This document shows, piece after piece, positions 19,514 through 60,557 of a DNA stretch of 64,000 nt. The position numbers and the translations under genes are program-made. This DNA comes from Blasia pusilla (lineage: Eukaryota): assembly GCA_050084515.1 (NCBI GenBank), contig CM114271.1, positions 12,338,001-12,402,000 on the forward strand, given 5' to 3'. Every line of letters begins with the position of its first letter. Within the stretch, counting starts at the first letter, position 1. Under the pieces are notes generated by a model. The model saw only the letters and a list, made by a program, of their open reading frames with translations, was not told the origin of the DNA and searched no databases.

Positions 19514-19546
19514 TTTGTGTGCATACTGTGAGAAATCTAAATTTAT

Positions 19547-19673
19547 TTGAGATATTTTGGTACTCAATCGTCTCAATGTTTAGATATCATGAGTTAGTAT
19601 GGTATCTTGTGTGCTAGTGTGTGTATTTGGTGGCAACGATGTATGTTTTGTAGCGATGTGTATGCGCACAACA
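19547..19673 (+). repeat. Terminal B repeat of the PHD-Gypsy family
   Basis: GAGATATTTTGGTAC..GTAGCGATGTGTATGCGCACAACA matches the reverse complement of 44113-44238. Confidence 0.8.
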
Positions 19674-21828: not shown

Positions 21829-22139
21829 CACGAATGCCGTATTAGGTGCCTAAACTAACCAAAAAGATTGTTTGAAGTCTCGGAAGAGTTGCTCGTATTA
21901 GAAAGGTAGGAATTAGGGAAGGTTGAGCTTGATGAGATGCCGAGTTGAGAACTAGGTGGGTTGGAGGGCCGATTGACCCAAACCCGACTCACGTGAGTGT
22001 GTTTGGGTGTAGATCGATAGTGAGAGCATGTCCTACTAAATGTACGCTTCCACAACACTAAAGATTGACATTCAAGAGGAGTAGACCCATGACACGTATA
22101 ATTTCCATGGATGGAAATGGAATAAAAATTCAACAAGGA

Positions 22140-24079: not shown

Positions 24080-24179
24080 TAGATTGCTCCACCTCCACTT
24101 GCTTAATGAGATAACACGGGCAAATCTCGAAAGACTTGGGACAGACTTTCTGGTCGGTTCAGGAATCTGAAACGGCGTT

Positions 24180-35833: not shown

Positions 35834-38800
35834 ATGGAAGTAGAAATGAGTGCTGCGGAGAAATATTTGGCTGCGGACTCTGCCTCGCCTCATTGTGGTG
35901 CCGCTCCGGCGATGTCTCCCTCTTGTTTCTCCCTGTCTCCCACTGCCAGCACCCAACCCTTGACCATCAACGACAGCAGTAACAACAATGGCTTTAACAA
36001 GCGCAAACGTCGACCGGCAGGCACTCCTGGTAAGTCTGCACCTGCCACTTTCTCCCTTCTCGAAATGGAGCGTTTTTCTAAAGGTCTTTGCACGTATTTT
36101 CAAACCAGTGATCGTTTGCACGCATTTTACAAGCAGTGATCGTTTTTCACGCATTTTACAAGCAGTGATCGTTTGGAAGCATTTGACAAGCAGTGATCGT
36201 TTGGAAGCATTTGATAATCAGTGATCGTTTGGAAGCATTTGATAACTAGTGATCGGCTTGACTTCAAGTGGGTAATGAAGAAGAGGTTCAAGTGTTGTCA
36301 ACATTCGTCATTGTTTAAGAGTGGATAGTTCCCGAGAGAGAGATCGTCAAAGGCAGTGATCGATACCCTTGAGCAAGACGTAACAAGACATGCGATTATG
36401 AGTTGTCTACGGCTGGGTTGAACATACACGGTTTACATGCATCATAGAGCATCGCAATTGGCCTCGAGCTGCGCTCGTCCAATTTCGTGTAGTACCTACC
36501 CCACTTACTCTAGACAGTTTCCCTAGGTTTGCAAGACCTGGGAGTCGTTGACCTCTTTCGTACGTAGGCTTTTACGATGTGGCTGTTGGGGCATGAATGT
36601 ATGCTGCAGCAGTCGCGTTGCCAAGCTGTAGATCTGCAGAATCCCCCGTGATAATTGAAACCGTGGCCAACCAGTAGGACGAGGTAGTCGTCGAGACAGA
36701 TGATGGAAGATGCGGAAATCTTCTAGGAAGTGACAAACATGCAGGAGCACATCGTTGTAAATTGCGAGTTCAATGTGAGATTCCACAAGGCGTGTGTCGT
36801 CCGAACTACCTAGAACATCACGTGAAACACGAGCAACCTCATACGGATACGAAGAGAATTGAGCCAAACTTATCTGAAGACTCGAAACTTCGTAATGGTT
36901 GACTCAGGGTTCTTTGTGCAATTACAGATCCAGACGCGGAAGTCGTGGCTCTTTCACCTCGAACCTTGTTAGAATCAGACAGATACATCTGCGACATCTG
37001 CAGCCAAGGGTTCCAGCGTGACCAAAACCTTCAGATGCACCGTCGGCGTCATAAGGTTAGTGTCATGTGCACGTATTCACTCAACCCTGAACGTGTGAAA
37101 TACGAAAGGACATTTGGGTGCAAGTCAGCACTGTGGATCTTCAGTGGGCCAACTGTTGCAACGGAGCATTTTCTGTCAGTTGGGATTTGCAGCCTAGTTT
37201 CCTGATGCTGATTAGCGTAGAGCTACTGAGGAATTGCTTTAGTTTTGATTTAATGTTCGGTCGCTTCACGTGCAGGTGCCCTGGAAGCTCCTCAAGCGAC
37301 CAACTACTGATACCCGCAAACGAGTGTACGTCTGCCCAGAGCCGACATGCTTGCACCATGACCCCAGTCACGCACTGGGTGATCTGGTGGGTATTAAGAA
37401 GCATTACCGTCGTAAGCACAGCACTGACAAACAGTGGAAATGCGAGAAATGCTCGAAGGGCTATGCTGTACAATCTGATTACAAGGCACATCTGAAAACG
37501 TGCGGCACGCGAGGGCATTGCTGTGACTGCGGGCGCGTTTTCTCTAGGTGAATGTCTCCGCTTCTCGCTAGTTCCATGGATACACATTCCTCACACCTCG
37601 GGTTATTCGCAATTCTCTTCGTGCATTGCTGATAACTTTGTAAGGATTGCATTTAACCACTTGAACCTGGCATACGGCGGACCAAAACCACTATTTTCGC
37701 ACGTTCTTACTTCCCATAACTTGCAAGGAGAAACACAGTTTTCTAGTTTCGAATTTCCCTCAGACGTAGAGTAACTGGTAAAGTCAATTTATCTGCCGTT
37801 GTCTGTCCTTAGCACAGACTATTTTTCATCGTAAATCAACGAGGATTTCATGCGATTATCTCACTCATCTTTCAATAACTACAGCTGCGGACGAGGGTTT
37901 TATATATGTCGTTCGGAAGCACCTCAGCGTCGGTTTCAAATTTGCCACAGCCTAACGCAAACTTCCACTTATCACTTGCACGCACCCTTTCCCTTCGAAC
38001 TTGATGAGATGCCCTATGCTGTCAACAGAAGCGGCGACTTCATATCTGCGGGTTCGAAGGAATTTTTCATTTGCGAATAGGAGTCTAATACATGCTTTGA
38101 CACGTTCACTTTACATCGTCATGCAGGGTGGAGAGCTTTATAGAGCACCAGGACACTTGCACCGCCGCGAAGGAGAAGTCTGCCTTACAAGTGGGTGGAG
38201 CAATCCATGCGAGTCAGGCAAATGGGGCTCCTGCCGATAGTCCTAGCAGCCGCTCTCTATCGACGGACTGTCTGAGCGTGGATCCTTCTCGATCGGCTAT
38301 TTCTGATTCCGTGGTCATGCCAGGTGCAGGTGAATACGGCGAAAATCCTGTGTCTAGTTCCTCTCCATCCAGACATCAGCATTGGATCATGATGGCAGAC
38401 AGTCGGGAGCTTCAGTTACTTCCGGAAGAAACGTCAGCTACTCGAGCTTCTCCAACGGGTATAGCGATGATGCCAACTAGCAGCAGTGGTTGTGGCAGGA
38501 GAGAAATCCCTGCGATGGACCTGAAGTGTAGCACGCCTACTACTTCTCGGAGCCACTGCGGAGAGACTGCCCCAAGGTTACAGCTGTCCATTGGGCCTTA
38601 TTCACTAACTGAAGATGCACCAAGTCACAGAGAGAAAAGCTCGACTTCAATGATCGGGCCAGCTCTACCGGATGTTTACGAGGTGAAGCCCATAACGGTT
38701 ACGGAAAGGGCGGCGTTGAGCAATTTGCATCAGCACAGGCTGCAGAGGAGAGGCAGTGAAGGAAAAACTTGTGGTGCAACATTGGCTATGTCGACAGCAA

Positions 38801-40035
38801 GATCTGTACATAATTTGTCCCGAGGTCAGTCGTCGAATTCCAATGGTTCGGATTCTGGAGGAATTGGAGATGGCTTGTCGCTGTCTGGCACATCTATGTC
38901 CACTACAACAACCAGCGTGAGGGAATGTTCAGATCACACAAATCTATCGAGCACTCCGTTTCCTGTGAGGAGTGCTAGGAAAACTAGCAATTTGTTAGGG
39001 AATGTGAAGGAGTCGAGTCTACTATTGAGGAGGAAGAGTAATTCTAGATCACCAGTTCGATTTGATCACGGGAACAATTCCGAGCTAGTGGTGGTCTCTA
39101 ATTCGGACACTTTGGCGTGGAGGCAGGCCAGCAGGCAACAGAATACTCCCATGACCCCCACCACTCCATCGACGACTACCAACGGGGGCGGATTTGTGAC
39201 AGATCTGGACAGTGCAACAACTATCACAATACGTAACAGTAAGAAGGCAGTTCGAGAGCAGATGGAGGCAGCAGTTCGGGCAATCGAAGAGGCGTCGAGG
39301 CAGAAGGAGATGGCGAATAGTGCAAGAGAGCAAACACGCTCTGATATCGGGTGCGCGTGGTCCGACTTCGCTGCCGCTCGGCGAACGAAAGATCAGGCTC
39401 GTGTTGAGCGTGAGGAAGCGGAATCTGAACTGGCGCAAGCAGAGCTGTTCAAGCGAGAAGCTCGAGAGCAACTAAAGCTGGCATCGGCAGAGAAAAGTTA
39501 TGCCGAGCACACAAGAGAAAATGCCAAGAGGCAGCGGGAGCTCGCGGAGTCGGAGCTCATTTCTGCAAAGCGTGTGAGAGAGCAAGCTCAAACGGAAATT
39601 GCTAAAGCTCAAATGTTGAAAGATCAAGCTGATCGTTTCATGGACGTGGCATCTAGTCGCTTCTCGTCCATCACTTCTGTTGCTGCAGTAATCTCTAATG
39701 TTCATCCGAGTTCTGATTGTTCCACCCAACAGGTGCACAAGAGTCAACGTCCTGTCCCTCCGAGTCTAGATTTCACCTCGCACCCGCTGCCCATGCCCAA
39801 TTTCTCCTCAACGTCTTCCCCATTCCAGATTTCCACTCCTCCACGCTATTCTTCCAGCATGATTCCGGTCACATTTATCGGCACATCTGCTCTTTGTCCT
39901 CCTCCAATGTCGCTTCCTCCGTGTGCTACGGTTTGCACTATTGCAGCATCCGGGGGAAGTGCTCCCAGCTGCAGCTATTCGCCATCCATGACTGGGGAGG
40001 CTCACCTTCACACTCCTAAGTCGGAGATGATTTAG
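35834..40035 (+). CDS. SGR5-like: INDETERMINATE-domain C2H2 zinc-finger transcription factor, SGR5/IDD14-16 subgroup; exons 35834-36029, 36928-37055, 37276-37547, 38127-40035 (834 aa)
   Basis: KRKRRPAGTP|DPDAEVVALSPRTLLESDRYICDICSQGFQRDQNLQMHRRRHK|VPWKL..CPEPTCLHHDPSHALGDLVGIKKH..CEKCSKGYAVQSDYKAHLKTCGTRGHCCDCGRVFSR|VESFIEHQDTC. All introns are GT-AG and exon lengths sum to 2505 nt in frame. LQLSIG motif and EQLKLASAEKSYAE coiled coil are typical of the subgroup. The start ATG is inferred. Confidence 0.95.
36106..36255 (+). repeat. ~28-bp minisatellite (5+ units) in intron 1
   Basis: CAGTGATCGTTT(GC/TTC/GG)A(C/A)GCATTT(T/G)A(C/T)AA repeated. Confidence 0.92.
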
Positions 40036-43000: not shown

Positions 43001-44112
43001 AGCTGATCCGAAGGGTCTAAAGGGCATGCATGATTCTCGAGGCTTAATGAGTACATTCTCCTCAACAGGGTTAACGTAGACGCATCTGACTCTCCACGTC
43101 AAGATTCCTACAAGTCTGAACGGCGAAGTCTTAGGAGGTGAATTGAGTAGTTCGAGGGAGGAACCCAACCACCCAAGTTGTAAGGCCGACCGACTTCTCT
43201 GGAGATTAAAAGGGGAAGGGTTCAACGGGGGGAGTCAAACGGACTTGGTGGGTCTTCCCCACCAAGTCCGTGCCATGCGATCTTTTGTAGTGCCAGTTTC
43301 TTTCTATCTCGGGGGAATCATTTCTCGTTTGAAAGGAGTTACTCTCGCTGCCACTACGTGATAGACTTCCACTCCACCAATTCTCGTGCCCATCTCCATT
43401 CCGTAATAAAATCTTTATATCTTCCCGATCCTCGAAATGAAATAATGGCTTAATAACCCCCTTAGGAAAATGTTGTGCCTTAAGAGGGCCATGTGAAAGA
43501 AATAACACATTACAGGCCCCTTCGGCATGGCCATGAAGAACTCAGCCACCCCATTACCTCGTGAAGGGGCCTCTCAGGGCCTCTCAATCACCAAAGGGCT
43601 CGGAGGAACTTTGTAGGTTGAAGCTGGTCGTTTCACCTTCACAATTTTCTTTTTAGTGCAAAACGCTATAGCCTTGCTGAACCTCTGTCTTATATGCAGA
43701 AACTGAAACTAGGGTCCCAATTACTTAGTAACTAAAAATTGAATGAGATGCTTTGTCTTTCTAGTTAGGTTAAATGGAGGATTGTTTGTGCAAGTTATGC
43801 AATTTTTGAAGTAGGAGAAGCCTCTGCATAAATTGAAGGAGATGATTACAAGGAATGGATATCAGATGAACCTTTTGATGGACCGATGGCATGATTCTTC
43901 AAATGGGTCACTCCCAAGCTATTATCTGACTAAGTCATAGAGTGGGAACGATAATTCCTACACACAGTAAGAGACCTAGATTACAATCCTACAATTGTTC
44001 AAAGTATAATGTGGAATAGATGAGGGAGAATTGAATGTAATTGCGAGTCTGTCAACCTAATATAATTGGCCCATAGAGGAAAATGCAACCTCATATAATC
44101 ATATTTATCCCA

Positions 44113-45941
44113 TGTTGGGCGGATACACATCGCTACACAACATACATCGTTGTAACCGAACACACACACAAACACGCACGATCCCATGCTAACTCATGGC
44201 ATCCAAACAACGAGACAAGAAGTACTAAAATATCTCTAATAAATCAAGATCCAATCTCTGTCAATACCATAGGTCTCAAATGTGTGCACTCTCTCTCTCA
44301 ATGTCAAACCAAACCCACTCTCCTAATGAGAGGCTAGGGTTACACACACAAGGCAAGCAAGACCATAGTTCCGTCGCCTCATGCCAAGAGGTTCAACAAA
44401 GAGAGAATGAGCTCTCGAACTCTCTCTCATTGAGGTATACCCCTCCCCTCTCCCAAGCTCTCTCCATGGTAACCTATGCTCCCAAGTCATCTCCTTGGCT
44501 CTTGACCTGATGTAGGAGGTCAAGGGCCACTTACCAAAAATAAAAAGGCGACCATATACTCAAAATAATACTTACCTAAAATAGTAAGTTCATGAATATG
44601 GCTCTAAATGAGCTGAAACGAAGGGGAAACCTACTCTCTCAGGTTTCCCGCGGCCTCAACAAGTCATCCTCGACCTCCTGAGCCTTTCCTTCTCTACTCG
44701 CGTAGGCACTCTACTCGATCTCACCGATTTAACCTAAAAGGTGTGAAAGATGTCGTGCGCATACACACTGCTACACAATATACATCGTTATCACCACAAA
44801 CAAACAATCACGATCCCATGCTAACTCATGGCATCCAAACAACGAGACAACAAGTACCAAAGTATCTCCAATCGCTCCCCTAGCTGGTGGTTAGGTTCCT
44901 CTAACTCCAGATAGCCATCTATCCCTACCTACCATGACATACATCTCTCAGACGCTAAGAGCAAGAAGGCCCGGTGCTCATGTGGCCCCATCGTTAGTCA
45001 CCTTCTTGTCATCCATGTCATAGACACAAGTCAAAATGTAGAACTACCTACTCTATGACACATCCATCGTCCCTAAGGAACCCTAGTGAGACGTGGCGTC
45101 AAGCAAGCCATATGCCATCCTCTCGAACATACTAGCATAGTGGCTACACCACGGGCAGAACCACACAACATATATCACAAGCCTCCAAGAACTCCTGCTA
45201 AGCTCGGATCAACTGTATCGTCAATGTTCAGAAGGTGACACGGCGCAAAGTTATGCATATGGTCCTTCCAAATCATACCATTGCGTCCCTCCAATAAGAG
45301 AACACTTAATGGCAAAACCTCACGCACTCTCAAGATGGTGCGACCTGCAGTCACATCCAACGTTGTGGATGCCGTCTACTGCAAGTAGACATAGTCTCCT
45401 TGATGAAACCTTCGGAAAGTAGGTTGATAACCACCCCCGCGAATAGTCGCATACCTCAATGTATCCTGATGCTACGCAATCGCCATGTTCTCAAACGCCA
45501 TGGGCATCACTCTCCGAAACAACTTTGTACTCTAAGAACATGCTCGCATCCATACACCAGGGTCATCAAGGTGTCAACAACATCTTGACGAATAGCCGTA
45601 GGTAAATCTGGCTCACGGCCATAAAGCAACAAGTACGGTGAGAAAGACGCTAAGGATGCGTGTATGCTGAATCTGTATCCCATCGCCAACCACGGCAACT
45701 GAAGGTCCCAATCTCCTAGGTGACCTCTCTGCAAGCCATACTTACGTTGTCCTCTCTTCACCGTCTGCACAATCCACTCCGCTAGTCCATTCGTCTCAAG
45801 ATGATCTCGCGAAGTACTGCAATGGTCGATCAGTGCCTAATCACACAAGGCCTTAAACTCCCCGTGGAACTTTATACCTTGGTTTGTCAATATCTTAGGT
45901 GGTGCACTGTAATGACTTAGCACGCGATCTAGGAAGGCATA
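44113..45941 (-). mobile_element. 3' part of PHD-Gypsy: integrase core and tail, PHD (45052-45175), B-A-B (B 44751-44870 and 44113-44238)
   Basis: YAFLDRVLSHYSAPPKILTNQGIKF, TNGLAE..VQTVK, SPYLLLYGREPDLP, LLLEGRNGMIWKDH, MLCG..MLVCSRGWHMACLTP..WMCH; GCTAGGGGAG tract before B1. Confidence 0.9.
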
Positions 45942-46455
45942 TATCATGTCTTTTAAGATAGATCGGTGAGATCTAGTAGAGCGCCTTCGTGAGTAGTGGA
46001 CGACACGCTCAATAGGTCGAGGATGATGTGCTGAGGCCCCGGGAAACCTGAGAGAGCAGGTTTCCCCTTCGTTTCGGCTCATTTGGAGCCATATTGAGGA
46101 ACTTACTATTTTAGGTAAGTACCATTTTAAGTATATGATCAATTTTATATTTTTGGTAAGTGGCCTTTGACCTCCTACATCAAGTCAAGAGCCAAGGAGG
46201 TGACTTGGGAGAATAGGTTACCATGGAGAGAGCTTGGGAGAGGGGAGGGGTATACCTCAAGGAGAGCGAGCTTGAGAGCTCACTCTCTCTTTGTTGAACC
46301 TCTTGGCATGAGGCGGCGGAGCTATGGTCCCTTGCCTTGTGAGTGTAACCCGAGCCTCTCATTAGGAGAGTGGGTTTGGTTTGACATGAGAGAGAGTGCA
46401 CACCTTTGAGAGCTATGGTGTGAGATGGTGTAGAGAGAGATTGGATCTTACTTTA
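45942..46455 (+). repeat. 5' terminal A repeat
   Basis: High similarity to the reverse complement of 44239-44750 (A between two B repeats) and to 23505-23945; here it is not flanked by B on either side. Confidence 0.88.
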
Positions 46456-48227
46456 CAAAGAGAGAATGAGAGAGTGAGAGAGCCTCATGGGGGAGCTTGC
46501 TGGTTACTCGCTATTTTTGCAGGTTGGGGACGGTGTTCCCCGTTCAGCGGCTCATGGGAGTGCTCATCGGAGCAAGGGCTGCTTTGATTGTTCTTTGCAT
46601 TTTTCGTGTGGGAGAGTGGCGCGCGGAAGCGCTGCCCAATTTTTGATAGGGATTGATCATGGGGGTGGGTTGCCCCATGCCGATGCTCTTGGGAGCACCA
46701 TGTAGCTTGCTGATTTGTATTTTTACAGGTTTTACATTTTGGTTGGGAGAAATCAGCCCGGAAGCGCTGCCAAATTTTGTGTAGGAGAAAGAGACATTGG
46801 GCTTTACAATAGTCCTCGTAAGTTTTTACTGGAATGTCCAATTCCAAATATGTTTTGATTTTGTTGTAGATTGTAAAGCTGTGCACGTTATGCAATAAAT
46901 GGTGCGCAATTTGGAGTTGCGAGTAAAAAGTTATGGTCAATCTTGAAAAACTGCCATTGCTAGGCGATTTTTAGGGTTAAATTGTTCAAACCCTAAACCA
47001 GCCGCCACGCCGGCGGCGGCCGTCGTCGTCATAGTCACCGTCACCAGTCAACAGTCAACCATCACCATCGACGGTCAACTATCACGATCAATGGTCCGTC
47101 GTCATCATCAATGGTCAACCGTCACCGTCAACGGTCCACGGTCCACCGTCGCCGTTGCCTAGCGTTGCTTAGAGCTGGATTCGGCCGTTTTCCACCCTTT
47201 GGTTGCCATAGCCGCCACTACGAGTGGAGGGTCTTCAACGACCACCATTGATTCTCTCACTTGCGCCGCCGCCACATACTTTGGTGTGGCCGCCACCGTC
47301 ATCGTAGTTTCGTCATCAACCAGTGATGGTAGATGACCTCCGGTTATGGTGTTTGAGTTTTGATTTCATGCTGCTATGTTGTGATTGGTAGCCGCTCGAT
47401 GACGATCCAGTACCGTGCCGTGACGCTTGTAGCTGCAACGCACCGCCGATTTTCGCGCCGTGCCGCTCGTGGCCGCACCGCACCATCTTGATCGCGGAGC
47501 TGCACCGTCATTGTGGAGCAGAGTGTGGGTTTATTGTTGATTGAGGAGGGTATGCCGCCAAGTGCCGCATCCCACCATCGAGGGCCATGACGTTCGTAGC
47601 CGTTCCGTGCCGCTTGCACCGCCGCACCGTTCCGCAGGAACCGCACTATCCATCAAGGAGTTTTAAGCAACGTCACTACGGGAGGAGTATGACTTGTTGA
47701 TTGGAAGAGTTGTCTCCATAACCGAGTTGGGGTCGAGATTTGCAATTGCTGAGGAGCGACATCGACCTGTGTTCAGGTTACCCATTCTGGTCCTTTACCC
47801 TGCACGTGTGAGGGATTCTGGGATTTGGGTAGTTTATTTGGGGATATTGGGTGTGTGCATGCTGAGAGCATCATTTATGTATGTGGTTTAGGGGACATAG
47901 ACATGTGTGGGATATCCGTAGTTGAGGGTAGATTGTCGATGAGATGATAGCATGGTCAATTTTCCGCACCATGTCGCTTGTTGCCGCACGTTACACGTTT
48001 TGAGGAGGGAAAGTGTAGATCGAGTGTCGCATGTTTGGGATGAGTGATTAAGGGATTACTCGCGAGGTTGAGAGTGATCATGTGAGAGGGGCACAAGGGC
48101 CATCACGACGTCCTTTCAGGATTTTGAGAGGCAAGGTAATGGACCTGAGAGTAGCTCTGGAGGGTTTACCCGGAGTGGTGCGAGGTTTCGAGGGTCTCCA
48201 CGTGAGAGACCACCTCCATCTCCTTCT

Positions 48228-49629
48228 ATGTCATCTTTAGACGAGGGGGAGCGTGTAGAGGAGTTTGTGAGCACATCGCCACAGATTGTGAGTGGTCCTA
48301 CCAGTTGGGCGTATGAGATGGACGATCAGGCTAGAGGACCGCGTAGGTTTTCAGGTGCATTAGGGACGATTGAGTTGCACGATTTCATAGCAGAGTTTAG
48401 GAGTTGGTGCGACTCCAAGCGGGCCAGGAACTCTAGAGGGTTCAACCCGTTTACAACATGGAACGGTATGTTCTAGCATTTAGAGGGGGCGCCCATGGAC
48501 GATTACCACGAGTTCTCTCAGAGATATGCACGTGAGATCGAGGCGTGGAGGCTCTACTATGACCTACATTATGTGTCATGGACGGAGCCATTCCCAGATG
48601 AGGAGGAGGAGTCATGAGAGGCTACTTCCTCTTCCACTAGTGATGTTTTAGGAGGGGTAACTCGCATGGGAGTAGTTGCACCTTCTACTCGGGCTCGTCC
48701 CAGGTTCAACCGTGTGGTTGAGTTCTTTGCTGAGTTGAGGGCGAGCTACCAAGGGGTACAGACGGAGAAGTTGCGGAGCATCCACGACTTCCAGAGGCGC
48801 TCGGGTGAGAGTTTGCGTGAGGCTTACACTCGCTTGCGCGTGTTGATCAACGTCACTCAGGGGGTGACAGAGGCTCACGCTATCCAGTCATGGTACGCGA
48901 TGCTAGACCGGACCCTGCAGACACGGGTGCGGGAGGAGGTGCTTCTTATGAACACCTCCCCTACATTGAAAGATGTTTTCACGACCGCCAAGAACATTGA
49001 GCGCAATATGGCGGAGGAGAGCATAGCCACCATGGGTTCTCGGCGAGAGCAGTCACGATTGACTACACTACCTGTGCAACAACGTGGACTCTGAGATAGG
49101 TCGATTGTGGCACCACGCGCTTAGGGAGGATACCGGGAGGCCGTGCCACAGAGACCTGCCTTCATATGCGGCTCAGCAGCCGCCGCCTTCTATTACTTGT
49201 TGGTCATGTAGTGGAGCCCATCATCAGTGCGATTGCACCCGTCAGGGTTATGGACGTGTGCCTCAGCATGGAGGAGGAGATGGTGTTGCACCAGGTGGTC
49301 CTGTTGGGGGACGAGGACCTGGAGTTTCCCAACAGGGTGGTGGAGCTGCCCATGGAGGAGGTAGAGTCCTACCACCTAGACGCGTCGAGAGAGATGCCGG
49401 GCGTGAGGCTAGGATGGCTCCTCAGATACATCAGCTACAGGAGCAGATTGCCGCTATGGCATTGAGATTACCCGATGCCAGATCCGTGGCATCGACATCA
49501 TATGGAGCAGCTAGAGATATAAGGGATCCTGGTTGGATGTGCGGGGTTGCCCAAATGGAGGCAGCCGCAGTTGTGACGCATGGAGCAGCCGCAGAGCTGG
49601 ATCCACAGCAAGGGGAAGCCAGGAAATAG
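48228..49629 (+). pseudogene. gag with CCHC zinc knuckle
   Basis: RRFSGALGTIELHDFIAEFRSWC, FQRRSGESLREAYTRLR (retrotransposon gag-like), CWSCSGAHHQCDC. Confidence 0.8.
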
Positions 49630-50089
49630 ACTAGGCTTCCTTAGTCTTTCACGTTGTCCAAGACGATGAGGACCCCATCGATGGGTCTTGATCAGAGTTC
49701 CTAGAGAGTTGGTGATGTTGTTGGTGTGCAGGCACGAAGGGCAATGGGAGAAGCAAGTGCGACGACTCCTATTGTTGATGCTCAGAAGGGGCATGTATCG
49801 AGCACGTTGTTGGGGGCAACCACCATTGTGTACCGCGTTCCTTTATTTTCTGCTTCCGATGTTATGAAGTTGGGGGCTACGCCCGCCGAGGCTTTTCGGC
49901 TGGCCGCTACGCTATATGAGCGTGGAGTTGGAGTTCTTGCATCACGTTTAGAGGTGATTGTAGAGGAGGTGATGGACCTATCCTTGGAGTGGATGCTCGA
50001 GCCGTCCACGTCAGATTCATGGCAAGCTGTGGCTGCTAGGATGGCGGAGATGCCCGCTAGACCCGCGATAGAGCGTGCCATGGCTTCTC

Positions 50090-50490
50090 CTGGTGTTGTG
50101 TTGCTGGATAATCGAGAAGAGGTCTTCCAGTTGGTGAGTCCCGGAGGTAGAGCTTTTAGTCCGAAACGCGTCTTGTTGGATTCAGGAGCACAACCCCTGA
50201 TGTTGGGGAAAGCGTCATTCAGAGGATTGGACTTGACGAGAGCCAATGTGGAGCGTTGTCCATTCCGCATATAGACATCCTTGGGTGGAGCGAGTACCAC
50301 ATAATATATCACCCGACAGGAGGTCGTGGTGAGGATTCGCCCGGGACATCCTATAGATGAGTCTGTGGTGCGAGCCAAGGCGATAGTGACTGATGTAGAG
50401 TCCTATGACGTCTTGGTTGGTGGAGCAGTGTTATGACTGATGGGATTTTCCCTCGATTATTGGGAGCAATGAGCATCCTACAGACCAAGA
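50090..50490 (+). pseudogene. Retroviral-type aspartic protease
   Basis: RVLLDSGAQ (DSG at 50179-50187) and the downstream YDVLVGG motif. Confidence 0.85.
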
Positions 50491-50906
50491 TGAGAGTCAG
50501 GTGATGGGCGCCTTAGCTCATTAACCATTCGATTCACATGTGCAGTGATCGAGCAACGGCCAGGAGAGATGGCGACCTTAGCAACATTTAGTAGTGCCAT
50601 CACTTGGCCTAGTGATTTGATTGAGGGACATATCCATGTAGAGGATACTCCTGTTCCTGAAATTTCTATGGAGAGGCGTGTTATGGTAGCCGTATCATTC
50701 CGTGGATGAGAGGTGCCGTTGTGGGGCTCGATTGAGGAGCTTCGACGATTGGCAGATGAGCACGTGCAAACCGCACGGAGCGAGGCGTTTGCACCAGAGC
50801 ATGACGGGTCTGAGGAACCCGAGGTAGTAGGGAGTGCTATGATGACACCCTTTGATACCACACTCATTGTGTGGTGTACCCCCTTTGATACCACACCCAT
50901 GAGGGT

Positions 50907-52845
50907 ATTCGAGTTTTAGATCTCTTTGGAGGGATTAGCACCGGGTTAGCAGTTGTTTTGCAGGCAAGAGTGCGAGTATAAGAGTACCTGTATGTGGAGA
51001 GTGATGATGTTGCAAGGCGCATCTCACTACAACATGTGGTGCAGTTACCCCTACATTTTCCCGACTTATTGTCTGTGTCCACGGTACAGGGATACCAGAG
51101 TTCCTTACCGAGGGATATTTCATTGTTGGGGGCGCAGGACTTAGAGCCGGTAGGAACCATTGATTTGGTCATTTCTGGTTGGCCATGTCAGGGCCAATAC
51201 TGGGCTCACTACCTACTAGTTCACGGAGAAGATGGTGCAAGAGAAGGACTACCAAGAAGTCTTGATGAGCGATACTAAAGCCTTATGTCTGTCTGCACAC
51301 TTTTCTTCATCTGAACTTTCACCATATAAAACTTTGCTTTCGAAGTACCTAGATGTGTTTGCCTGCACCATGGAGGAGATGAAAGGAGTACCAAAACAAT
51401 ATGGGGAGCATAGAATTGATCTCAAGTCTGAGGCAATCCCTGTGCGAATGATGCGGTATAGATTGAATCCAAAGTATTCCTTAATGGTCAAAGATGAAAT
51501 TGATCAGAGGTTGGAATCAAGAGTCATTTATCCGATATTGAGTAGTGAGTGGGTATCCCCCAAAGTCATTGTTCTTGTGCTTCATCCTCTAGACTGGACG
51601 AAGAAATTCCACGTGTATATAGACATCTCTTCATTTGCTATTGGTGTAGTACTCAATAAATTAGATGAGAAAAAGAAGGATTATATACCCTATCTATTCT
51701 GCAGGTCGGCAACTCTCGGTGGCGGAGCAGAAGTACACTACTACGGAGAGGGAGGCCTTGGAAATGGTCTTTGCCTGCAAGAAGTTCCGGCATTACTTTC
51801 TGGGGTACCCATTTATTTTTCATGTCGACCATTTTGCGCTTTGTGCCTTGGTGGTCAAAGCGGATTTCTCACGCAGGATTGCCCAGTGGATAATGCGGAT
51901 TTCTTATCAGGGTTGAGGACGCCCAAGGTCAACCTCACGAAGACCCTGTAAGATGATTTTTCGGACGAGGAGATGTTCCTTATAAGCAAAGAGACCTTGA
52001 GAAGATCTTCATACGAGGACATTTTGCAGTTCCTCGTCACTTTTAGATTGCCAACCCTTATGACAGAAAAAGAGCGGGTAGTGTTTTTACATAAGGTACG
52101 GCCTTATGAGCTGTGCTAGGAGGTATTATTCAAGCTTGGCACAGATGAAGAATACCGGAGATGCTTGGAGAAGGAGGAAGTACCCCAAGTGTTGGACAAG
52201 GCAGCGGGTTGGATGATACTCGGTCCAGGTTGCTTTGGGAGATGTTGAGGGTCTTACAGCAGTTACAAGAGCACCAGTCTCGTTCTCCAACCTACATTCT
52301 GGAGAATATGCCCATCTTAGGAGACTCCAGGTCACGGGTGGTGATGAGTGCTCATCAGGTGTGTGCCTAGATCGGCCCAACACTGTTCTTGGATGCGGCG
52401 AGTGTAGGTTCTAGAGCCCATCGCCCGTGTCTATGGTGGACCAACTTGGTTTCCCATGCGGTGTTACGGAGGGCGTATGCGAGAGTGGAGCGCCCCTCCC
52501 ATTTGTTGGTGGATCCCATTATGGAGCCAAGTCGTTGATCACACGCAGTGAGGAACGATGATCAACCACCGTTGACTGTGGTCAATAGGGTAGGCAGGCT
52601 ATGGGCAGCCTTTCCCACGTTTATGAGTTTTCGTGCTTCCTACGCATACAAGGAGGCCAGTCCTAGCTTGGTTTGGGATGACCAGGTTCAGAGGTTGGTG
52701 GAGCCCAACGCCAACGAGAGAGAGCGGGCGATGGGATTTCCCCCAGAAGTGACGGCAGTCTCGTCAGTATCAGAGGCATCACGACGCCATGTCTTGGGTC
52801 AGGCGATGGACTTGAACTCCTTGACATGGATCTTCAGCTTGGGAG
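50907..52845 (+). pseudogene. DNMT3-like C5 cytosine methyltransferase domain, copy 1, split by an insertion at 51198-52184
   Basis: Motif I IRVLDLFGGISTG; motif IV IDLVISGWPCQG; GL..RSRLLWE; motif VI YILENM; motif VIII DAASVGSRAHRPCLWWTNL; motif IX ERERAMGFP..T; motif X RRHVLGQAM. Confidence 0.92.
51198..52184 (+). mobile_element. LTR-less, internally deleted pol fragment of a different Gypsy lineage
   Basis: EHRIDLK..YRLNP..SEWVSP (RT N-terminus) joined to FHVYIDISSFAIG, AEQKYTTTEREAL (RNase H) and LFKLGTDEEYRRCLEKEEV (pre-integrase); absent from the paralogous MTase at ~58300. Confidence 0.85.
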
Positions 52846-53299
52846 TGGCTGAGCAGTGTCGGATGAGATCGCGACAGATCACAACGGTTGCGTTGGTGAG
52901 CCCCATGCCTACCAAGATGGTGGAGGCAGTGGCTGGGGGCGATACCCGAGGAGATCAACATACCAAGGTAGATCGGGAGAGACACCCTTGGACTTCTTGG
53001 GATGTTTTGCAGGTACGCCAGGAGATGATAGCCACAACATCGAGCGTGGTTCTGGGCACTGCATGTGGAGGAGATCAGAGTTTGCACTTGGCTGCAGGAG
53101 AGTGGTCGAGTGTTGTTGTTTGAGATGGGGTTGCACCATAGCAACCACTCATATCCACGCCGGAGAGTCCTACCGTAGTCACGATGGAAAGTTGGGAGCT
53201 AGATATGGGCCCTTTGTTGATAGGAGGAGAGTTGCGTCGAATACATCAGTTCCTCAAGAGTTATAGGAGCCGCTTTGCATTTAGCATGGAGGATTTGGG

Positions 53300-54539
53300 T
53301 ACGCTGAAGGGACTAGGGATCCGCATTGAGTTGTCGAGTGATACGTCGATCTTCCGATGACCCTACAAGTACAGTGATATGGAGAGGGCTTTGATTCAGA
53401 GTAGGAGCCACGACTTGGTTGGAGCAGGATTAGTGGGGATGTCGCATTGGAGTATGCATCTGCCACTGTCATGCCCGCCAAGAAGGATGTGCATGGCAAC
53501 TAGACGGATAGGCGGATGTGTGGTGATTACCGACCTATCAATCGGCAGACGAAGTCCAATAGGCATGCCATGCCCACCCCTGAGGAGATCTTTGATGCTT
53601 TTGGTCATGCAAAGGTTTTCAGTTCATTGGATTTGCGAGCCGAATACCATCAGCTGCCTATCAGATTGGAGGACAGGCAGAAGATGACATTTTGGGGCAT
53701 CGATCCTCACGGGAGGGATTGTTTGTACAAGTGGCGGTTCTTACCATTTGGGTTAAAGAACGCCCCGGCTGAGTTTTAGAGGGTCATGGATAGGATCTTG
53801 GCTGGTCTGGATTTTGCTAGGTGTTATATTGATGACATCGTAGTCTTTAGCACCACGGTTGAGGAGCATGAGCGACATCTAGAGGAGGTATTTTGACAAT
53901 TGCAATTACATGGGCTGAAGCTACATCCAGGCAAGTGCAAGTTCTTCTACGACCAGATTGAGTACTTGGGTAATACAATATACCTAGGGGGCCTTGGTGT
54001 TCAGCAGACAAAGGTAGAGGCTATCTCACGCATTCCACGCCCTACAGATGTGAGTCGTGTTCGCGCATTCATGGGATTGGCGAACTTCTATCGGCGGTAT
54101 GTCAAGGGATTCAGTTCGATTGCAAAGCCGCTGACCTTGCTGAACAAGGTGGATCACGAGTGGCACTAGGGGGATGAGCAAGAGCAAGCATTTCAGTTGC
54201 TCAAGGATAGGGCCCATCTTGAGGAGACCAATTAGGGGACTTCCTTTCCAGTTACACACAGATTGGAGCATGTTGGGGCTTGGAGCGGTGCTTACCCAGT
54301 ATGATGATGAGGGTAGAGAGTTCGTGGTGGCTTACGCTAGCCACTCAAACAATGCTGCAGAGGCGAAGTATAGCTCGTATGAGCATGAGTGCTTGGCTGC
54401 GGTGTGGGCTGTCGCGTATTTCAGGTGTTACTTATTCGGCAATCCCTTTACCATCATCATTGATCATCAACCACTGAAGTGGTTGATGGAGTCCAACAAG
54501 CTTACAGGAAAGCTTGCGAGATTGGCTCTGTTGTTGCAG
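53300..54539 (+). pseudogene. Gypsy reverse transcriptase and RNase H
   Basis: RMCGDYRPIN, FSSLDLRAEYHQ, LPFGLKNAP, YIDD (53825-53836), KCKF, FMGLANFYRRYV, FQLHTDWS..GLGAVL, YSSYEHECLA, DHQPL. Confidence 0.95.
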
Positions 54540-54594
54540 GGATCTTGGAAGATTGGCGTGTCACTCGATAACTCAATGCGGATCCCTAGACCCT

Positions 54595-57182
54595 TGTGAT
54601 ACCCGCAATTTTGTACTTTTGAAGATTTAGAGTTTTTTATTCGAAGAAAACTTGTGTATACATAATGATTTTGGATATTGTGGTTGTGTACTAGAAGAAT
54701 GAGTAATACTGAAAGAGATCACGAAGCTCCTAGGACAAGGCAGAGAGGTGGAAGATCAAGGATTTGCCTTAGAGGAGAGAGAAATGCAGTAACGAAGTCT
54801 AAAGACTCGGAGCGAAGCTTGAAAAATCAATGAAGCCCTATTGAGAACTTGTTCATGAAGTGCTTCGCTCTTGAACGAAGCATAAAGACGAAGAGGAAGA
54901 AGTACTTGGCTCTTCAGTGAAGCACAAAGCACTTGAAACCAGAGCGAAGAATGGAGCGCTTCGTCTTCAGATCAGGAGAAAGAGATTTGTCCTCAAGTGA
55001 AGCAAAAGAGGTCTAGACTTCGCAGCGAAGCAAAGCTAAGACTCGAAGTGATTTCAAGAGGCATACTGATAGAACAGTTAGACTAGGAAGAGGCGCAACT
55101 TTTGGTATCAGATAGGAAGTTAATACAGTTACGATTAGCGGATTCACAGGGATCATAGGAAAAGAAACCACCATAGATCTAGGTAGTTACAATTGTTGAA
55201 GAAATACCAGATTCCTCAAGAACGCTTCGAATCCTTAGAACCACTCCTACTTCGGAGAATATTTAAGAAGCATGAAAGTAGCTATCATCATTATTCTTTC
55301 ACAAAGTCCTTATGCTGTAGGAATGGTCCGAGCAAGGGAGTAGTACCCTCTCACGCTTGTATACACTTTTGAAGCTTTCTCATTCTTGATGGAGTAGTAA
55401 AGTACTCGTTTCTTCATTCTGATGTGCGATGCATATGTCTGAGTATTCTCATTGGGTCTGTAGAGTGAAGAGTGAATCAAGAGAAGCTTTTCATCAATAG
55501 AATAATCAGCACAGAGTTGTAAGAAATTTGTTCGACAGAGAGTAGCTTGCCTAGACGGATTGAGTTTTGAAAGTAGGAGAAGACAACTTCTTGTTGAGGT
55601 CTTTGTGAGGTTCTTTGATGCTGAGTGAAGATCTACCTAAGCGTGATTTCAACTCCACTAGAGAGAATAGAGGAAAGAAATATTGGTACTAAGAGAGATC
55701 TGAAGAAATTGATAAGTCATTAAATCTGAATTATATACACTTAATTACAACTAGTGCAAGATAAACAACATCTTGACCTCTCTTTCCACATGTGATACCC
55801 ACAATTTTGTACTTTTGAAGAAATACATCTTTTTATTCAATGAAGACTTGTATATATATTATGATTTTGATTATTATATATTATTATGGAGAGGAATGAG
55901 TAAAATTAAAGTGAATCATGAAATTCCAAGGACAAGGTAGAGAGATAGAGAATCAAGGATTTGCCTAAGAGGAGAGGAGAATAAAATAACGAAGTCTAAA
56001 GACCCAGCAAGAAGCTTCGGAAGGACAACAAAGCTCTGTTAAGCTCTGATAAGCTCTGTCTATGAAGTGCTTAGCTCCTAAACGAAGCATAACGAAGCAT
56101 GAAGAAGAAGAAGAAGAAGAAGAAGAGAAAGAAGTACTTCGCTCTTGAACGAAGCTCGAAGAACGAAGCACCTAGAACAAGAACAAAGAATAGAGCACTT
56201 CTTCTTTAGATCAGGAGAAAGAGCTTCGTCCTCAAGCAAAGCAAAAGTGGTCCAGACTTAGCAGTGAAGTTAAGCTAAGATTGACAGTGATTTCAAGCGA
56301 CACATAGTTAGAACAGTTAGAATAGGAAAAGGCGCAACTCTTTGTATAAGATAGGTAGTTAAGACAATTTTGTTTTGTGGATTCATAGGGATCTTAGGAA
56401 AAGAGAGGAGCACCGTAGATCTAGGTAGTTACAAATGTTGAAGAGACACCAGCTTCATCAAGAACGCTTTGAATCTTTGGATCACTCCTACTTTAGAGAG
56501 TATTTAAGAAGCATAGAAGTAGCTATCATCATCATTCTCTTACGGAGTCCTCATGCTGTAGGAATGGTCCGAGCAAGGGAGTAGTATCCTCTCGAGCTTG
56601 TATACACTTTTGAAGCTTTCTCATTCTTGATGGAGTAGTAAAGCTGTCATTCATTCTTTCTGATGTGCGATGCTTATGTTTGAGTATTCTTTTTGGGTCT
56701 GTAGAGTGAAGAGTGAATCAGGCGAACCTTTCTCATCAATGGAATAATCAACATAGAGTTGTAGGAAATTTGTTTCATAGAGAGTAGCTTGTCGAGAATG
56801 ATTGAGTTTCGAAAGTAGGAGAAGCCAGCTTTCATGTTGAGGTCTCTGTGAGGTTTCTTGATATCGAGAGGAAATCTACCTGAGCGTGCTATCAACTCCA
56901 CTAGAGAGAATTGAGAAAAGAAACCTTGGTACTAAGAAAGATCCGAAGATATTGATAAGACATTGAATATAAATCATACACATTTAAATACAACTATTAC
57001 AATAGAATTGTAATTTTGAACTCTCTTTTCATCAAACAATGATCCTCTTGGGGATCGAACTCAGTAAACGATTATAAAATTGAAACTCTTATACATTACA
57101 CCATATAATCATGATCCTCTTGGGAATCGAACTCACTAAATTAATGTAAAAAGATCAATTCTTATACTTCTTGTACATTACA
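54595..57182. mobile_element. Tandem pair of LTR-like units (54595-55790 and 55791-57182) with a 5-bp TSD
   Basis: Both units start TGTGATACCC and end in CA, and are colinear over ~1.15 kb; ACCCT is duplicated at 54590-54594 and 57183-57187; no coding capacity seen. Confidence 0.88.
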
Positions 57183-57636
57183 ACCCTTCAGCGTACCCAA
57201 ATCATGCATTCTAAATACAAAACAACTCCTATAACTCCTAAGGAACTCGTGTACGCGGCGTCGCTCTCCTCCTATCAACGTAGGGCCCATATCTGGCTCC
57301 CAAGCCTCCATCGGGATTATGGTAGGACTCTCCGGCGTGGGTTTTTGTGGTTGCTATGGTGCAATCCCCTCTCGGACAACAAAACTTGACTGCTCCCCTG
57401 CAGTCAACTACAAAATTGGATCTCCATATGCAGTACCCGGAACCACGCTTGATGCTATGGCTACCATCTCCTAGCGTACCTGCAAAACATCCCAAGAAGC
57501 CCAAGGGTATCTCTCTCGATCACCTTTGGTGTGTCGATCTCCTCGGGTCTCGCCCCCAGTTACTGCCTCAACCGTCTTGGTAGGCATGGGGCTCACCAAA
57601 CGCAACTCTTGTGATCTGTCGCATCCTCAAATGACG

Positions 57637-58599
57637 CTACTCAGCTACTCCTAAGGTGAAAATCCATGTCAAGCAATTCAAGTCCATCGCCTGGCCAAAG
57701 ACATGACATTGTGATGCCTTTGATAGTGACGGTACTGCTGTCACTCCTGTGGGGAATCCCATCGCTCGCTCTCGCTCATCAACATTGGGCTCCACCAACC
57801 TCTGTACATGGTCATCCCAAACCAAGCTAAGTCCGGCCTCCTTGAATGTATAGGAAGCGGGAAAACTCACCAATGTGGGAAAGGCTACCCGTGGCATGGC
57901 AATCTTGTTGACCACAGTCAACGACTTTTGATCAGCGTGCCTCACTGCTTGTGATCGACCGCCCGGATCCAATATAGAATCCACCAACAAATCGGAAGGG
58001 CGCTCCACTCTTGCATATGCCCTCCGCAACACCTCGTGTGGTACCAAGTTGATACACCAAAGACACGGACAATGTGCTCGTGAATCCACACTTGCCGCAT
58101 CCAACAAAACTGTGGGGCCAATCCATGCGCGCATCTGATGTGCACTCGTCACCACATGGGACCTTGAATAGCCCAAAATCGGTATATTCTCCAGAATGTA
58201 TGTTGGAGGACGAGACTGATGCTCTTGGAAGTGTTGCAAGATCCGTATCATCTCCCAAAACAAGCTGGACCGAGAGTCGGCTAATCCGCTACCCCGTCTA
58301 GCACTTGACTCGCTCTGACATGGCCAACCAGCAATGACCAAGTCTATGGTCCCTACTCGCTCCAAGTCCTGCGCCCCCAACAATGAAATGCCCCTCAATA
58401 GGGAACTTTGGTAACCTTGGATGGCAGACGTACACAACAAGTCGGGAAAGCGAATGCATAACTATGCCACATGATGAAGTGAAGCACACCTCGCAACATC
58501 ATCAATCTCCACATAGAGGTACTGCTGCACATGTACTCTTGTTTGCAAAATAGCAGCTAACCTTGTGTTGATCCCTCCAAAGAGATCCAACACCCGAAT
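57637..58599 (-). pseudogene. DNMT3-like C5 cytosine methyltransferase domain, copy 2 (no large insertion)
   Basis: IRVLDLFGGINT, IDLVIAGWPCQ, GLADSRSSLFWE, YILENI, DAASVDSRAHCPCLWCINL, ERERAMGFPTGVT, HVFGQAMD; one stop near 58462, then a 267-codon open stretch. Confidence 0.93.
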
Positions 58600-60557
58600 A
58601 CCCTCCTCTAGGATGTGCCACATAATGGGTGTGGTGTCCAAGGGCGTCATCATAGCACTCTTGACTACCTTGGGTTCCTCTGATCCGTAACATTCTAGTG
58701 CAAACGTCTTACTCCACGCGGTTTGCACATGCTCAATGGCTAAGCGTCGAAGCTCCTCAGTCAAGCCCGAAAGCGGGTCCTCTCCTCCACGGACGCATGC
58801 GGCAACCATGACACTCCTCTCCATAGAAATATGAGGAACGGGCATATCCTCTCAAATCAAGTTCCTCAATCAAATCACTAGGCCAAGAGATGGCGTTACT
58901 AAATGTTGCTAAGGTCACCATCTCTCCTGGCCGTCGCTCAATCACTCCACATGTGAATCGAATGGTTAATGAGCTAAGGCGCCCATCACCTGACTCCCAT
59001 CTTGGTCTGTAGGATGCTCATTGCTCCCAATAATCCAGGGAAAATCCCATCGGGTATAACATTGCTCCACCAACCAAGACGTCATAAGACTCTCCATCAA
59101 TCACTATCGCCTTGGCTCGCACCACGGACTCATATGTAGGGTGTCCTAGGCAAATCCTCACCATGACCTCTTGTCGGGTGATATACTGGGTGGTACTCGT
59201 TCCATCCAAGGATGTCTATATCCAAAATGGACAACGCTCCACATCGGCTCTTGTCAAGCCCAATCCTTTGAATGACGCTTTCCCCAACATCAAGGGTTGC
59301 GCTCTTGAATCCAACAAGACGCGTTGTGGACTAAAAGCTCTACCTTCTGGACTCACCAACTCGAAGACCTCTCCCCGGTTATCTAGCAACACAACACGAA
59401 GAGAAGCCATTGCACGCTCTATCGCGGGTCTAGCCGGCATCTCCTAGCAACTGCAGCCTGCCATGAATCCGATGTGGACGGTCCGAGCATCCAATCCGAG
59501 GGCAGGTCCATCATCTCCTCTGCAATCACCATTGAACGTGATGCAGGAACTTCAACTCCACGCTCACATAGCGTAGTGGCCAGCCAAAAAACCTCGGCGG
59601 GTGTACCTCCAAAAGTCATAACATCAGAAGCAAAAAATAAAGGAGCGCGGTACACAACAATGGCCATCCCCAACAATATGCTCGACACATGCCCCTCCTG
59701 AGCATCAGCAATAGGAGTCGTTGCACTCGCTTCTCCCATCGCCCTTTGTGTCTGCATACCAACAACATCACCAACTCTACGCGAACTCTGATCAGGACCC
59801 ATCAATGGGGTCTTCATTGCCTCGGACGATGTGAAAGACTGAGGAAGCGTGGTCTGTTTCCCAGCTTCCCTTTGATGTGGATCTAACTCTACGATTGCTC
59901 CATGCGTCACAAGTGCGGAGGCCTCCATCTGGGCAACCCCGCACATCCAACCAGGATCCTCCATATCTCTAGCTGCTCCATATGATGTCGATGCCACGGA
60001 TCCGACATCAGGTAATCTCAATGCCATAGTGGAAATCTGCTCATGTAGTTGTTGTATTTGAGTAGCCATCCCAGCCTCACGTTTGGCGTCTCCCACAACG
60101 CGTCTAGGTGGTGGGACTCTACCTCCTACACGAGTAGCCCCACCATCCTGTCGGGCAACTCCAACTCCTCGTCCCCCAACAGGACCACTTGGTGGATGTG
60201 CGGGCCAAACACCCAAACCAGCAACTTGCTGTGGTGCCCTCTAGCCCTCGGTCCAAACGTAACTCAGGGTGTAAATTGAAACACCTAGCGCATGTGTGAC
60301 CATACCTCTAAAAATAGTCCCAATGACAACCTCCTGGTGCAGCACCATCTCCTCCTCCATGCTGAGGCACACGTCTAGGACCTTGACGAGTGCAATCGCA
60401 CTGATGATGGGCTCCACCACATGACCAACAAGAAATCGTAGGCGGCTGCTGCTGAGCCGCATATGAAGGTGCAGGTTTCTATGGCATGGCCTCCCAGTAT
60501 CCTCCGTGTGTTGGCGGTGCCACAATTAACCTATCTCGGAGTCCACGTTGTTGCACT

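Follow-up and report, generated by a model that had tools for sequence, protein, structure and literature searches.

The locus analysed here raises the question of how a retroelement that encodes an integrase can end in split direct repeats, with a segment A alone at its 5' end and a B-A-B array at its 3' end, in place of two equal long terminal repeats (LTRs). The stretch examined, hereafter the window, comprises 64,000 nt of contig CM114271.1 of Blasia pusilla. It holds decayed copies of a family that encodes gag, protease, a DNMT3-like domain, reverse transcriptase (RT), RNase H, a DDE integrase and a PHD finger. Repeats were located by repeat finding and BLAST, and the family's domains were mapped by tblastn with the open reading frames (ORFs) of a related full-length copy, L051, together with Pfam. 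An integrated copy opens with A1 and closes with B1-NN-A2-B2 (NN being two nucleotides), not with two equal LTRs. At a probability of about 0.55, we read this as a bryophyte Ty3/gypsy-type family in which a canonical provirus is integrated in circularly permuted form, the route of the permutation being one that we infer.

The initial annotation of the window had described four separate 3' ends in which a PHD finger and a purine tract are followed by B, A and B again, and repeat finding, BLAST, tblastn and Pfam recover this order at every one of them. Each array lies downstream of a decayed integrase-PHD frame (tblastn, Pfam), and inspection of the sequence places the purine tract directly against B1 in all four. 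In the copy termed Y (B-A-B at 44113-44872), repeat finding gives two Bs that are 91% identical over 78 nt and 632 bp apart, with an A of about 510 bp between them; BLAST aligns the same two Bs at 84% over 129 nt. Copy W (11849-12625) has Bs of 126 nt that are 84% alike at a spacing of 623, and further B-A-B arrays occupy 20282-21073 and 22831-24081. The 5' end at 45942-46455 (+) had been described as A alone. It is 87% identical over 511 nt to the A within 44113-44872 (BLAST), and the homology between the two runs precisely from the B1|A junction position to that of A|B2, in agreement with that description.

Between window copies, the A and B sequences are strongly diverged, down to about 70% identity or beyond detection by BLAST. 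The two Bs within each copy are similar, whereas those of different copies scarcely resemble each other. Because the B-A-B pattern recurs in all four diverged 3' ends of the window and in 17 of the 46 related metagenome loci that reach B1, it is far beyond chance. The window holds no intact family member, and the layout of one element is not provable from it alone, since its one visible 5' end (45942) is on the plus strand, opposite to the B-A-B of copy Y (44113-44871), which like the 3' end of copy W (11865-12626) belongs to the minus strand. The interval 44113-46455, under which the initial annotation listed the feature, is made of parts of two oppositely oriented copies, X (+) and Y (-), and not of one element.

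The layout of single elements comes from related metagenome loci. The scan led from the PHD ORF of copy W through an alignment of integrase-PHD proteins to contigs, giving 349 confirmed stretches, from which 80 loci were kept; the proteins similar to this ORF include one named from the liverwort Calypogeia fissa. Self-BLAST of the 13 loci with long upstream flank returned A1...B1-A2-B2 in three (L009, L014 and L051), each 9.1-9.2 kb long. When the parts of L009 were mapped by BLAST over all 80 loci, the 17 B-A-B arrays among the 46 loci reaching B1 resolved by their flanks into 11 distinct sites. A second subfamily (L057, L061, L067, L069, L078 and others) carries B-A-B after the PHD finger too, and its single visible 5' end (L080) is A alone. 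Together with 12 subfamily-1 loci in which A runs into the leader, this makes 13 countable 5' ends, and B stands beside A1 in none of them (0/13). An LTR of B-A-B at both ends, which would have reduced the pattern to an internal duplication, was hence not seen.

The flanks of these loci define both the ends of the element and the length of its target-site duplication (TSD). In all seven full-length copies, a 4-bp TSD flanks A-left and B-right: AAGG, TCTC and CATA in the B-A-B copies L009, L014 and L051, and TGTT, TACA, ACTA and TGTG in the single-B copies L001, L007, L046 and L052. This implies that a DDE integrase joined exactly those ends. One TSD pair spans the whole element and none surrounds A2-B2. 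B-A-B was always found downstream of the PHD finger and purine tract, inside a TSD that encloses the whole 9.1-9.2 kb element from A1-left to B2-right, and never as a free unit of the kind known as a terminal-repeat retrotransposon in miniature (TRIM).

The terminal sequences follow the same division. A-left reads TGTCATG in subfamily 1, TGTCAA in subfamily 2, and TGTCAC or TGTCATG in window copies W and T, while B-right ends ..CACGACA or ..CATGACA, such that A-left (TGTCA..) and B-right (..TGACA) form a short inverted repeat. TG..CA is thus present at A-left and B-right; B-left and A-right are without it in the window copies and in subfamily 2. The earlier remark that A does not start with TG holds for the decayed copy X, which begins TATCATG, and fails for the family, where the RNA consensus and the other copies give TGTCA. 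The B1|A2 junction always consists of ..ACA, two bases and TGTCA.., that is, the right end, NN and the left end, forming a palindrome. NN is exactly 2 nt in 17 of 17 loci (GC, AC or AT), and reads GT, AA, AT and TC in the window copies. At the other junction, A2 joins B2 directly (..CATTTTCA, then G or A, then TTGTGG). Both junctions vary by single bases only, apart from small duplications at two sites.

The coding capacity identifies the enzyme that would act on these ends. The ORFs of L051 match RVT_1, RT_RNaseH, Integrase_H2C2, rve and PHD in Pfam, with a weak match to DNA_methylase; rve and Integrase_H2C2 are also present in the intact relatives P0029 and P0033. A tyrosine recombinase (Phage_integrase) was found in none of the 18 L051 ORFs of at least 90 aa, eight of which match no Pfam family, nor in P0029 or P0033. 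The Pol order of protease, RT, RNase H and integrase with an rve (DDE) core is that of Ty3/gypsy elements. A short TSD and TG..CA inverted termini, also expected of that group, are present, and two equal LTRs are not. These domains and the full-length A1...B1-A2-B2 copies bear out the proposal of an integrase-encoding Gypsy family with split repeats.

The positions of the priming sites bear on how this layout is to be read. A purine tract, the candidate polypurine tract (PPT), abuts B1 in 17 of 17 metagenome B-A-B loci (GGGGGGCGAG in subfamily 1). At the other end, no TGG occurs in the first 10 nt after A in window copy X or in the metagenome lineages, so a tRNA-type primer-binding site (PBS) is lacking there, as the initial annotation had observed; the window contains no tRNA gene. 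Starting 0 nt after A1, however, three lineages carry bases complementary to a stretch within A itself, 26-31 nt past a TATA box. Subfamily 1 pairs the PBS CTCAAAGAACTAT.. with ..ATAGTTCTTTGAG in A, exactly over 16 nt in L009 and over 11 nt in L001. Subfamily 2 pairs AATCACCAAAAGTG (L080) with CACTTTTGGTGATT over 12-14 nt against the A2 of L061, L067 and L069. In window copy X, CAAAGAGAGAATGAG and CTCACTCTCTCTTTG are complementary at 14 of 15 positions. The sequences change from lineage to lineage, yet they still pair, and at the same position, so the pairing co-varies. The majority sequence of 19 subfamily-1 A copies consists of TATAAA, a 14-nt spacer and the palindrome CTCAAAGAAC-ATA-GTTCTTTGAG, and in the minimum-free-energy fold of the predicted 5' RNA of L009 the first 14 nt are paired with the PBS.

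Self-priming has been defined by complementarity of 10 nt or more between a stretch within the 5' repeat and bases that begin 0-5 bp behind that repeat (Neumann et al. 2019, PMC6317226). Such a match is present in L009, L001, L080 and window copy X, the other copies being decayed. A PBS of the self-priming (Tf1/sushi) type explains the absence of a tRNA PBS. Both a PBS after the 5' repeat and a PPT before the 3' repeat are therefore predicted from sequence, and they stand in standard places. Together they define an LTR of B-NN-A, with TSD-bearing ends in its middle; A...B-NN-A-B is accordingly a permutation of B-NN-A...B-NN-A, laid out as if a normal provirus had been opened mid-LTR. The initial annotation had proposed non-standard priming and strand transfer. 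The priming half of that proposal is not supported as worded, and the oddity appears to lie in integrase-type ends within the LTR of the expected reverse-transcription product.

The comparison of the two Bs points in the same direction. B1 and B2 carry subfamily-specific variants in common, no column of the B alignment differs by majority between them, and in 11 of 11 elements the identity between an element's own B1 and B2 exceeds its mean identity to other elements. Shared variants without position-specific differences imply that both Bs are remade from one template in each cycle, which is a prediction of the permutation model.

Under this model, transcription would start within A1 and end in or after A2. 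As in Tf1, the RNA would use its own 5' end as primer at the PBS, and plus-strand synthesis would start from the purine tract, such that reverse transcription would yield a standard cDNA with B-NN-A as LTR at both ends. The cDNA ends (A-right and B-left) would then be joined head to tail, as in a 2-LTR circle, giving the A2|B2 junction. Integrase would cut the B|NN|A palindrome of the PBS-proximal LTR with a stagger of 2 bp, leaving two recessed CA-3'OH ends with 2-nt 5' overhangs that would be inserted; cutting before joining would lead to the same product. Of the two A copies, just the 3' one would then be followed by B2, which may aid 3'-end formation there. The PBS-proximal LTR would become double-stranded long before the other, which is a speculative reason for the asymmetry of the cut. 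A more far-reaching version holds that the DDE integrase acts obligatorily on an att palindrome within the LTR, either on end-joined cDNA or by cutting first with the host joining the ends. The family would then have converged on the permuted, circle-derived layout of tyrosine-recombinase retroelements, with B2 giving the 3' A a context that the 5' A lacks, for instance for 3'-end formation. We offer this version tentatively, and rather doubt it.

Sequencing reads offer a further view of these ends. Three RNA runs from 2026 under the same species label and one set of DNA contigs were aligned to 43900-49900. The RNA reads are strand-specific, sense for both X and Y, and cover the body and the B|A junction; most are 90-95% alike to the window and hence derive from paralogues. 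No indexed RNA run was listed as containing the window stretch itself. Split RNA reads connect 44119-44129 to 45942-45944 on opposite strands, which corresponds to the B-right|NN|A-left junction, and the consensus of their loose ends is ACGACA-AC-TGTCACG. Heterogeneous flanks ending in TG meet position 45944 in reads, so A-left is an element boundary in many copies. On the other side of A, 37 DNA contigs run from 46455 into B-left. In the same DNA contigs, depth over the 3' two thirds of A (44240-44700 and 46100-46512) is 10-30 times that of the body, a depth that does not give copy number, and the B1 bin lies near body level. A may also occur in many solo or non-autonomous forms.

Several observations weigh against the permutation reading. 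A symmetric cut of a 2-LTR circle predicts the mirror product A-B-A...B at equal frequency, and none was seen among the 13 5' ends, so that an asymmetry has to be assumed. A single B followed by flank is found in 26 of the 46 loci reaching B1. These single-B copies retain their TSDs, and one of them (L052) has a flank in common with the B-A-B copy L031; they may be B1/B2 recombinants or products of assembly collapse. Metagenome contigs are in fact mosaics within repeats, given that the flanks of L031 and L052 are 95-98% alike and their interiors 91%, and this weakens both the B1/B2 comparison and the reading of single-B copies. The exact 10-nt self-primer arm is kept in only 6 of 20 subfamily-1 A copies, the palindrome being deleted or mutated in the rest, and the self-primer tract of copy X is of low complexity, with a fold that prefers another GA-rich partner. 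Among the matches listed for the RNA runs on 43900-49900, neither a transcript start at the predicted start nor a poly(A) site appears. Reads also cross from heterogeneous flanks into A1 (28-41 per run), and thus some transcription enters from outside. Transcript ends, cDNA ends and circles figure here as predicted positions and intermediates only.

Other explanations have to be weighed against the same evidence. Reverse transcription might directly make a linear cDNA ending in A-left and B-right, with both primers at the B1|A2 junction or through extra template switches, which corresponds to the scheme put forward in the initial annotation. This would account for the TSDs at the integrated ends A-left and B-right, and for the lack of A-B-A...B copies without any assumed asymmetry. 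We nevertheless regard it as unlikely: A begins with TGTCATGACC.., which contains no TGG and for which no complement able to act as primer was found, B1 does not end in a purine-rich stretch, the conserved purine tract before B1 and the co-varying PBS after A1 would be left without a role, and the copying of B2 from B1 would go unexplained. The variability of the A2|B2 and B1|A2 junctions did not separate models of replication. A compound origin, in which a separate small A-B element (TRIM-like or solo) lands repeatedly at the end of an LTR-less A-internal-B unit, draws on the TG..CA ends that A-B possesses and on the excess DNA-contig depth of A. It is made highly improbable by the single TSD around the whole element and the lack of one around A2-B2, by a junction of always exactly 2 nt, and by the co-variation of B1 with B2 by subfamily and of A and B within each window copy. 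Moreover, an A-internal-B unit would lack terminal redundancy for replication.

A DIRS/PAT/Ngaro-type cycle, with closed circular cDNA and a tyrosine recombinase possibly supplied in trans, has the layout in its favour, A1...B1-A2-B2 being that of such elements. A published legend likewise gives the DIRS arrangement as 'A-coding region-B-A-B' (Fig. 1e; de Mendoza et al. 2018, PMC5890265). The coding evidence nonetheless leaves this cycle very little room, with no tyrosine recombinase in the L051 ORFs or in P0029 and P0033, all three of which carry the H2C2 and rve domains of a DDE integrase. To our knowledge, tyrosine-recombinase insertion leaves no TSD, in contrast to the 4-bp TSDs and TG..CA inverted ends of all seven copies. 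It is also scarcely credible that the element is an ordinary one with an LTR of B-A-B (or B-A) at both ends, all 5' ends of which have been truncated or misassembled. The window copies are indeed decayed and nested, and the metagenome contigs are mosaic. Yet A-left is the common limit, to the base, of all 13 5' ends, seven of them with a TSD matching the 3' end; the heterogeneous flanks meet ..TG at 45944 in independent reads; and A1 reaches precisely to the position of the A|B2 junction, where it runs into the PBS.

In copy X (+) of the window, the 5' terminal repeat A1 spans 45942-46455, starting TATCATG and ending ..CTTACTTTA, as delimited by identity to the A of Y, the junction positions and the reads. 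Within it, a TATA-like TATAC at 46251-46255 is followed 28 nt downstream by CTCACTCTCTCTTTG (46279-46293), the tract complementary to the PBS, which marks the predicted transcript start and self-primer. The self-primer-type PBS CAAAGAGAGAATGAG occupies 46456-46470, 0 nt after A1 and without TGG. The body of copy X (46471-54594, +) comprises a leader and then coding domains located by tblastn with the L051 ORFs and by Pfam (RVT_1 and RT_RNaseH): gag at 48753-49286, a protease-like region at 49477-50460, a DNMT3-like region at 50473-52853 that includes a foreign insert (51252-52193), RT at 53142-54211 and RNase H at 54237-54539. The copy is interrupted at 54595 by tandem LTR-like repeats of another family, and tblastn found no integrase N-terminus to the right of 54594 in the window. 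These repeats (54595-55788 and 55791-57031, +) are 1.2 kb each, 79% alike, start with TGTGATACCC and have no internal region between them.

Copy Y (-) is represented by its decayed 3' part. An integrase core, from about residue 68 of the L051 integrase-PHD ORF, and the PHD finger lie at 45052-45941 (tblastn, 64-68% identity). The purine tract AGCTAGGGGAGCGA (44872-44885) stands directly upstream of B1 (44751-44871; TTGGAGATAC...GCGCACGACA), which is followed by the junction dinucleotide (44750-44749) and A2, together 44240-44750, all delimited by repeat finding, BLAST and sequence. B2 (44113-44239) terminates in ..CCCAACA at 44113, with loose ends and joints of RNA reads at 44119-44129. The simplest reading of these sequences is that copy X was inserted into copy Y, with the junction at 45941/45942 in Y's broken integrase. 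A single element with an inverted 5' part was considered and judged less likely, since the breakpoint falls exactly at A-left, as an insertion would give.

The remaining 3' ends belong to copies W, T and U, delimited by BLAST, tblastn and sequence. Copy W (11865-16717, -; also mapped with Pfam) is internally deleted and lacks its 5' end. It retains gag (16405-15782), the C-terminal part of RT with RNase H (14913-14311), and an integrase region (14062-12735) with a PHD finger at 12947-12678 (Pfam, 27.6 bits), followed by the PPT, B1 (12626-12488), GT, A2 (12485-12006) and B2 (12003-11865). Copy T (19674-21073, +) is a 3' fragment with the integrase C-terminus and PHD finger (19674-20068), the PPT, B1 (20282-20396), AA, A2 (20399-20960) and B2 (20961-21073); a lone B (19545-19673, +) lies directly before it. 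Copy U (22105-24079, +) is likewise a 3' fragment, with integrase and PHD finger (22105-22619), the PPT, B1 (22831-22959), AT, an A2 of about 985 bp (22962-23944) and B2 (23945-24079).

Other features surround these copies. Two more partial family copies lie head to tail on the minus strand at 57171-62411, one running from gag to the protease-like region (62411-60601) and the other, annotated as gag-DNMT-RT-N (60478-57171), holding the best-preserved DNMT ORF. A repeat of about 0.8 kb, termed Z, occurs at 8897-9605 (+), 21081-21900 (+) and 24112-24919 (-), and adjoins family termini in all three cases: one copy lies 7 bp beyond B2 of copy T, another, inverted, 30 bp beyond B2 of copy U, and the third at the expected A1 site of a leader fragment (9634-9911, 74% identical to 46522-46787). 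Z was considered as the equivalent of A in another subfamily and left as an unrelated repeat, having neither a self-primer complement nor a clear boundary. Remnants of a CACTA-type DNA transposon with Transposase_21 (tnp2) and DUF4218 ORFs lie at 1903-4500 (-). A host gene of the BIRD-IDD zinc-finger family occupies 36903-40035 (+), with PF22996 and PF22995 on 37249-37551 and a 644-aa ORF downstream; it places the host among land plants or their close relatives. Two (GA)n microsatellite blocks in inverted orientation (18924-19089 and 19350-19513) are located between a 339-aa unannotated ORF (17755-18774, -) and the lone B. Among the metagenome loci, B-A followed by an inverted part of A is found in 3 of the 46 that reach B1 (L025, L026 and L056), where B1-A2 meets an inverted A fragment (positions 181 to 2) at A-right, for example at L025 3360-3878. 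L003/L043 carry at 8465-8801 an A without leader, 1.2 kb upstream of the integrase. These odd arrangements may be nested insertions or assembly artefacts.

The DNMT3-like domain is shared with relatives well beyond the window. The window ORF at 57637-58458 (-) matches DNA_methylase (PF00145) with E 3e-11, and Pfam finds a DNMT domain in P0009, P0029 and P0033 as well. Among the PDB matches listed for the DNMT segment, 24 of 24 are DNMT3A, 3B or 3C. Marchantia polymorpha and Sphagnum fallax have relatives of the segment that carry the annotation 'hypothetical protein'. Distant intact polyproteins, some of them named from Closterium, combine zf-CCHC, protease, DNMT, RT, RNase H and integrase, some with a PHD finger. 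The domain stands between protease and RT in P0029, as in the window family, and between RNase H and integrase in P0033; this difference in placement suggests more than one capture or an internal rearrangement.

Classification and LTR-finding software assumes that an integrase goes with two equal LTRs and that A...B-A-B goes with a tyrosine recombinase. The present family breaks this link, and standard LTR finders will consequently mis-delimit or miss it. It is abundant in bryophytes, as seen from the 349 stretches of one metagenome scan and from many 'hypothetical proteins' of Marchantia. The combination of a DNMT3-like enzyme, a PHD reader and sense transcription in the source species makes it a candidate system for the interplay of transposon and host chromatin.

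The closest described system is KnitGypsy-Dnmt3 of Klebsormidium nitens, to which the Fig. 4c legend of de Mendoza et al. (2018, Nat Commun 9:1341, PMC5890265) ascribes a DIRS repeat structure with Gypsy domains; a 2026 preprint also mentions 'streptophytes (Gypsy-DNMT3)'. From these passages, an A-B-A-B layout on a Gypsy-Dnmt3 element is already in print for a charophyte relative, and the bryophyte member is new. Both are streptophyte Gypsy polyproteins with a Dnmt3-like domain in Pol. The window family differs in being found in bryophytes (relatives named from Marchantia, Sphagnum and Calypogeia) and in its C-terminal PHD finger. The likeness covers layout and domains by description, the named algal relatives retrieved here being only from Closterium. 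The 2018 text and legends give no TSD, end sequences, PPT or PBS positions, or replication model. Our literature searches found no published description of bryophyte members, TSDs, the att palindrome or priming-site positions, some of which the 2018 supplements may hold. The anatomy reported here turns a remark in that legend into a testable question, namely whether an integrase uses an internal, circle-type junction as its natural substrate. Gypsy-7a_cRei of Chlamydomonas was considered as a case of the same layout and rejected; it has a PHD finger, but its left LTR is merely 8 bp short.

In priming, the family resembles the Tf1/sushi group, which includes the plant Tcn1 clade found in mosses (Neumann et al. 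2019, PMC6317226): a tRNA PBS is absent and a self-complementary PBS takes its place. It differs from that group in its PHD finger at the chromodomain site, its DNMT domain and its split repeats.

In layout, the family resembles the PAT/Ngaro/TOC1-type elements of the DIRS order, which carry split direct repeats A1...B1-A2-B2 with the internal B1A2 as the joint of the element ends. It departs from them in its DDE integrase, 4-bp TSD, TG..CA ends and retrovirus-like positions of the predicted PPT and PBS. A further parallel is the retroviral 2-LTR circle, whose palindromic LTR-LTR junction has been reported to be cleavable by integrase in vitro. In both, the right and left integrase ends meet in a palindrome, ..CA-NN-TG... 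In the window family, however, this palindrome is heritable in every LTR and no by-product, and it is the other junction, A|B, that resembles joined cDNA ends.

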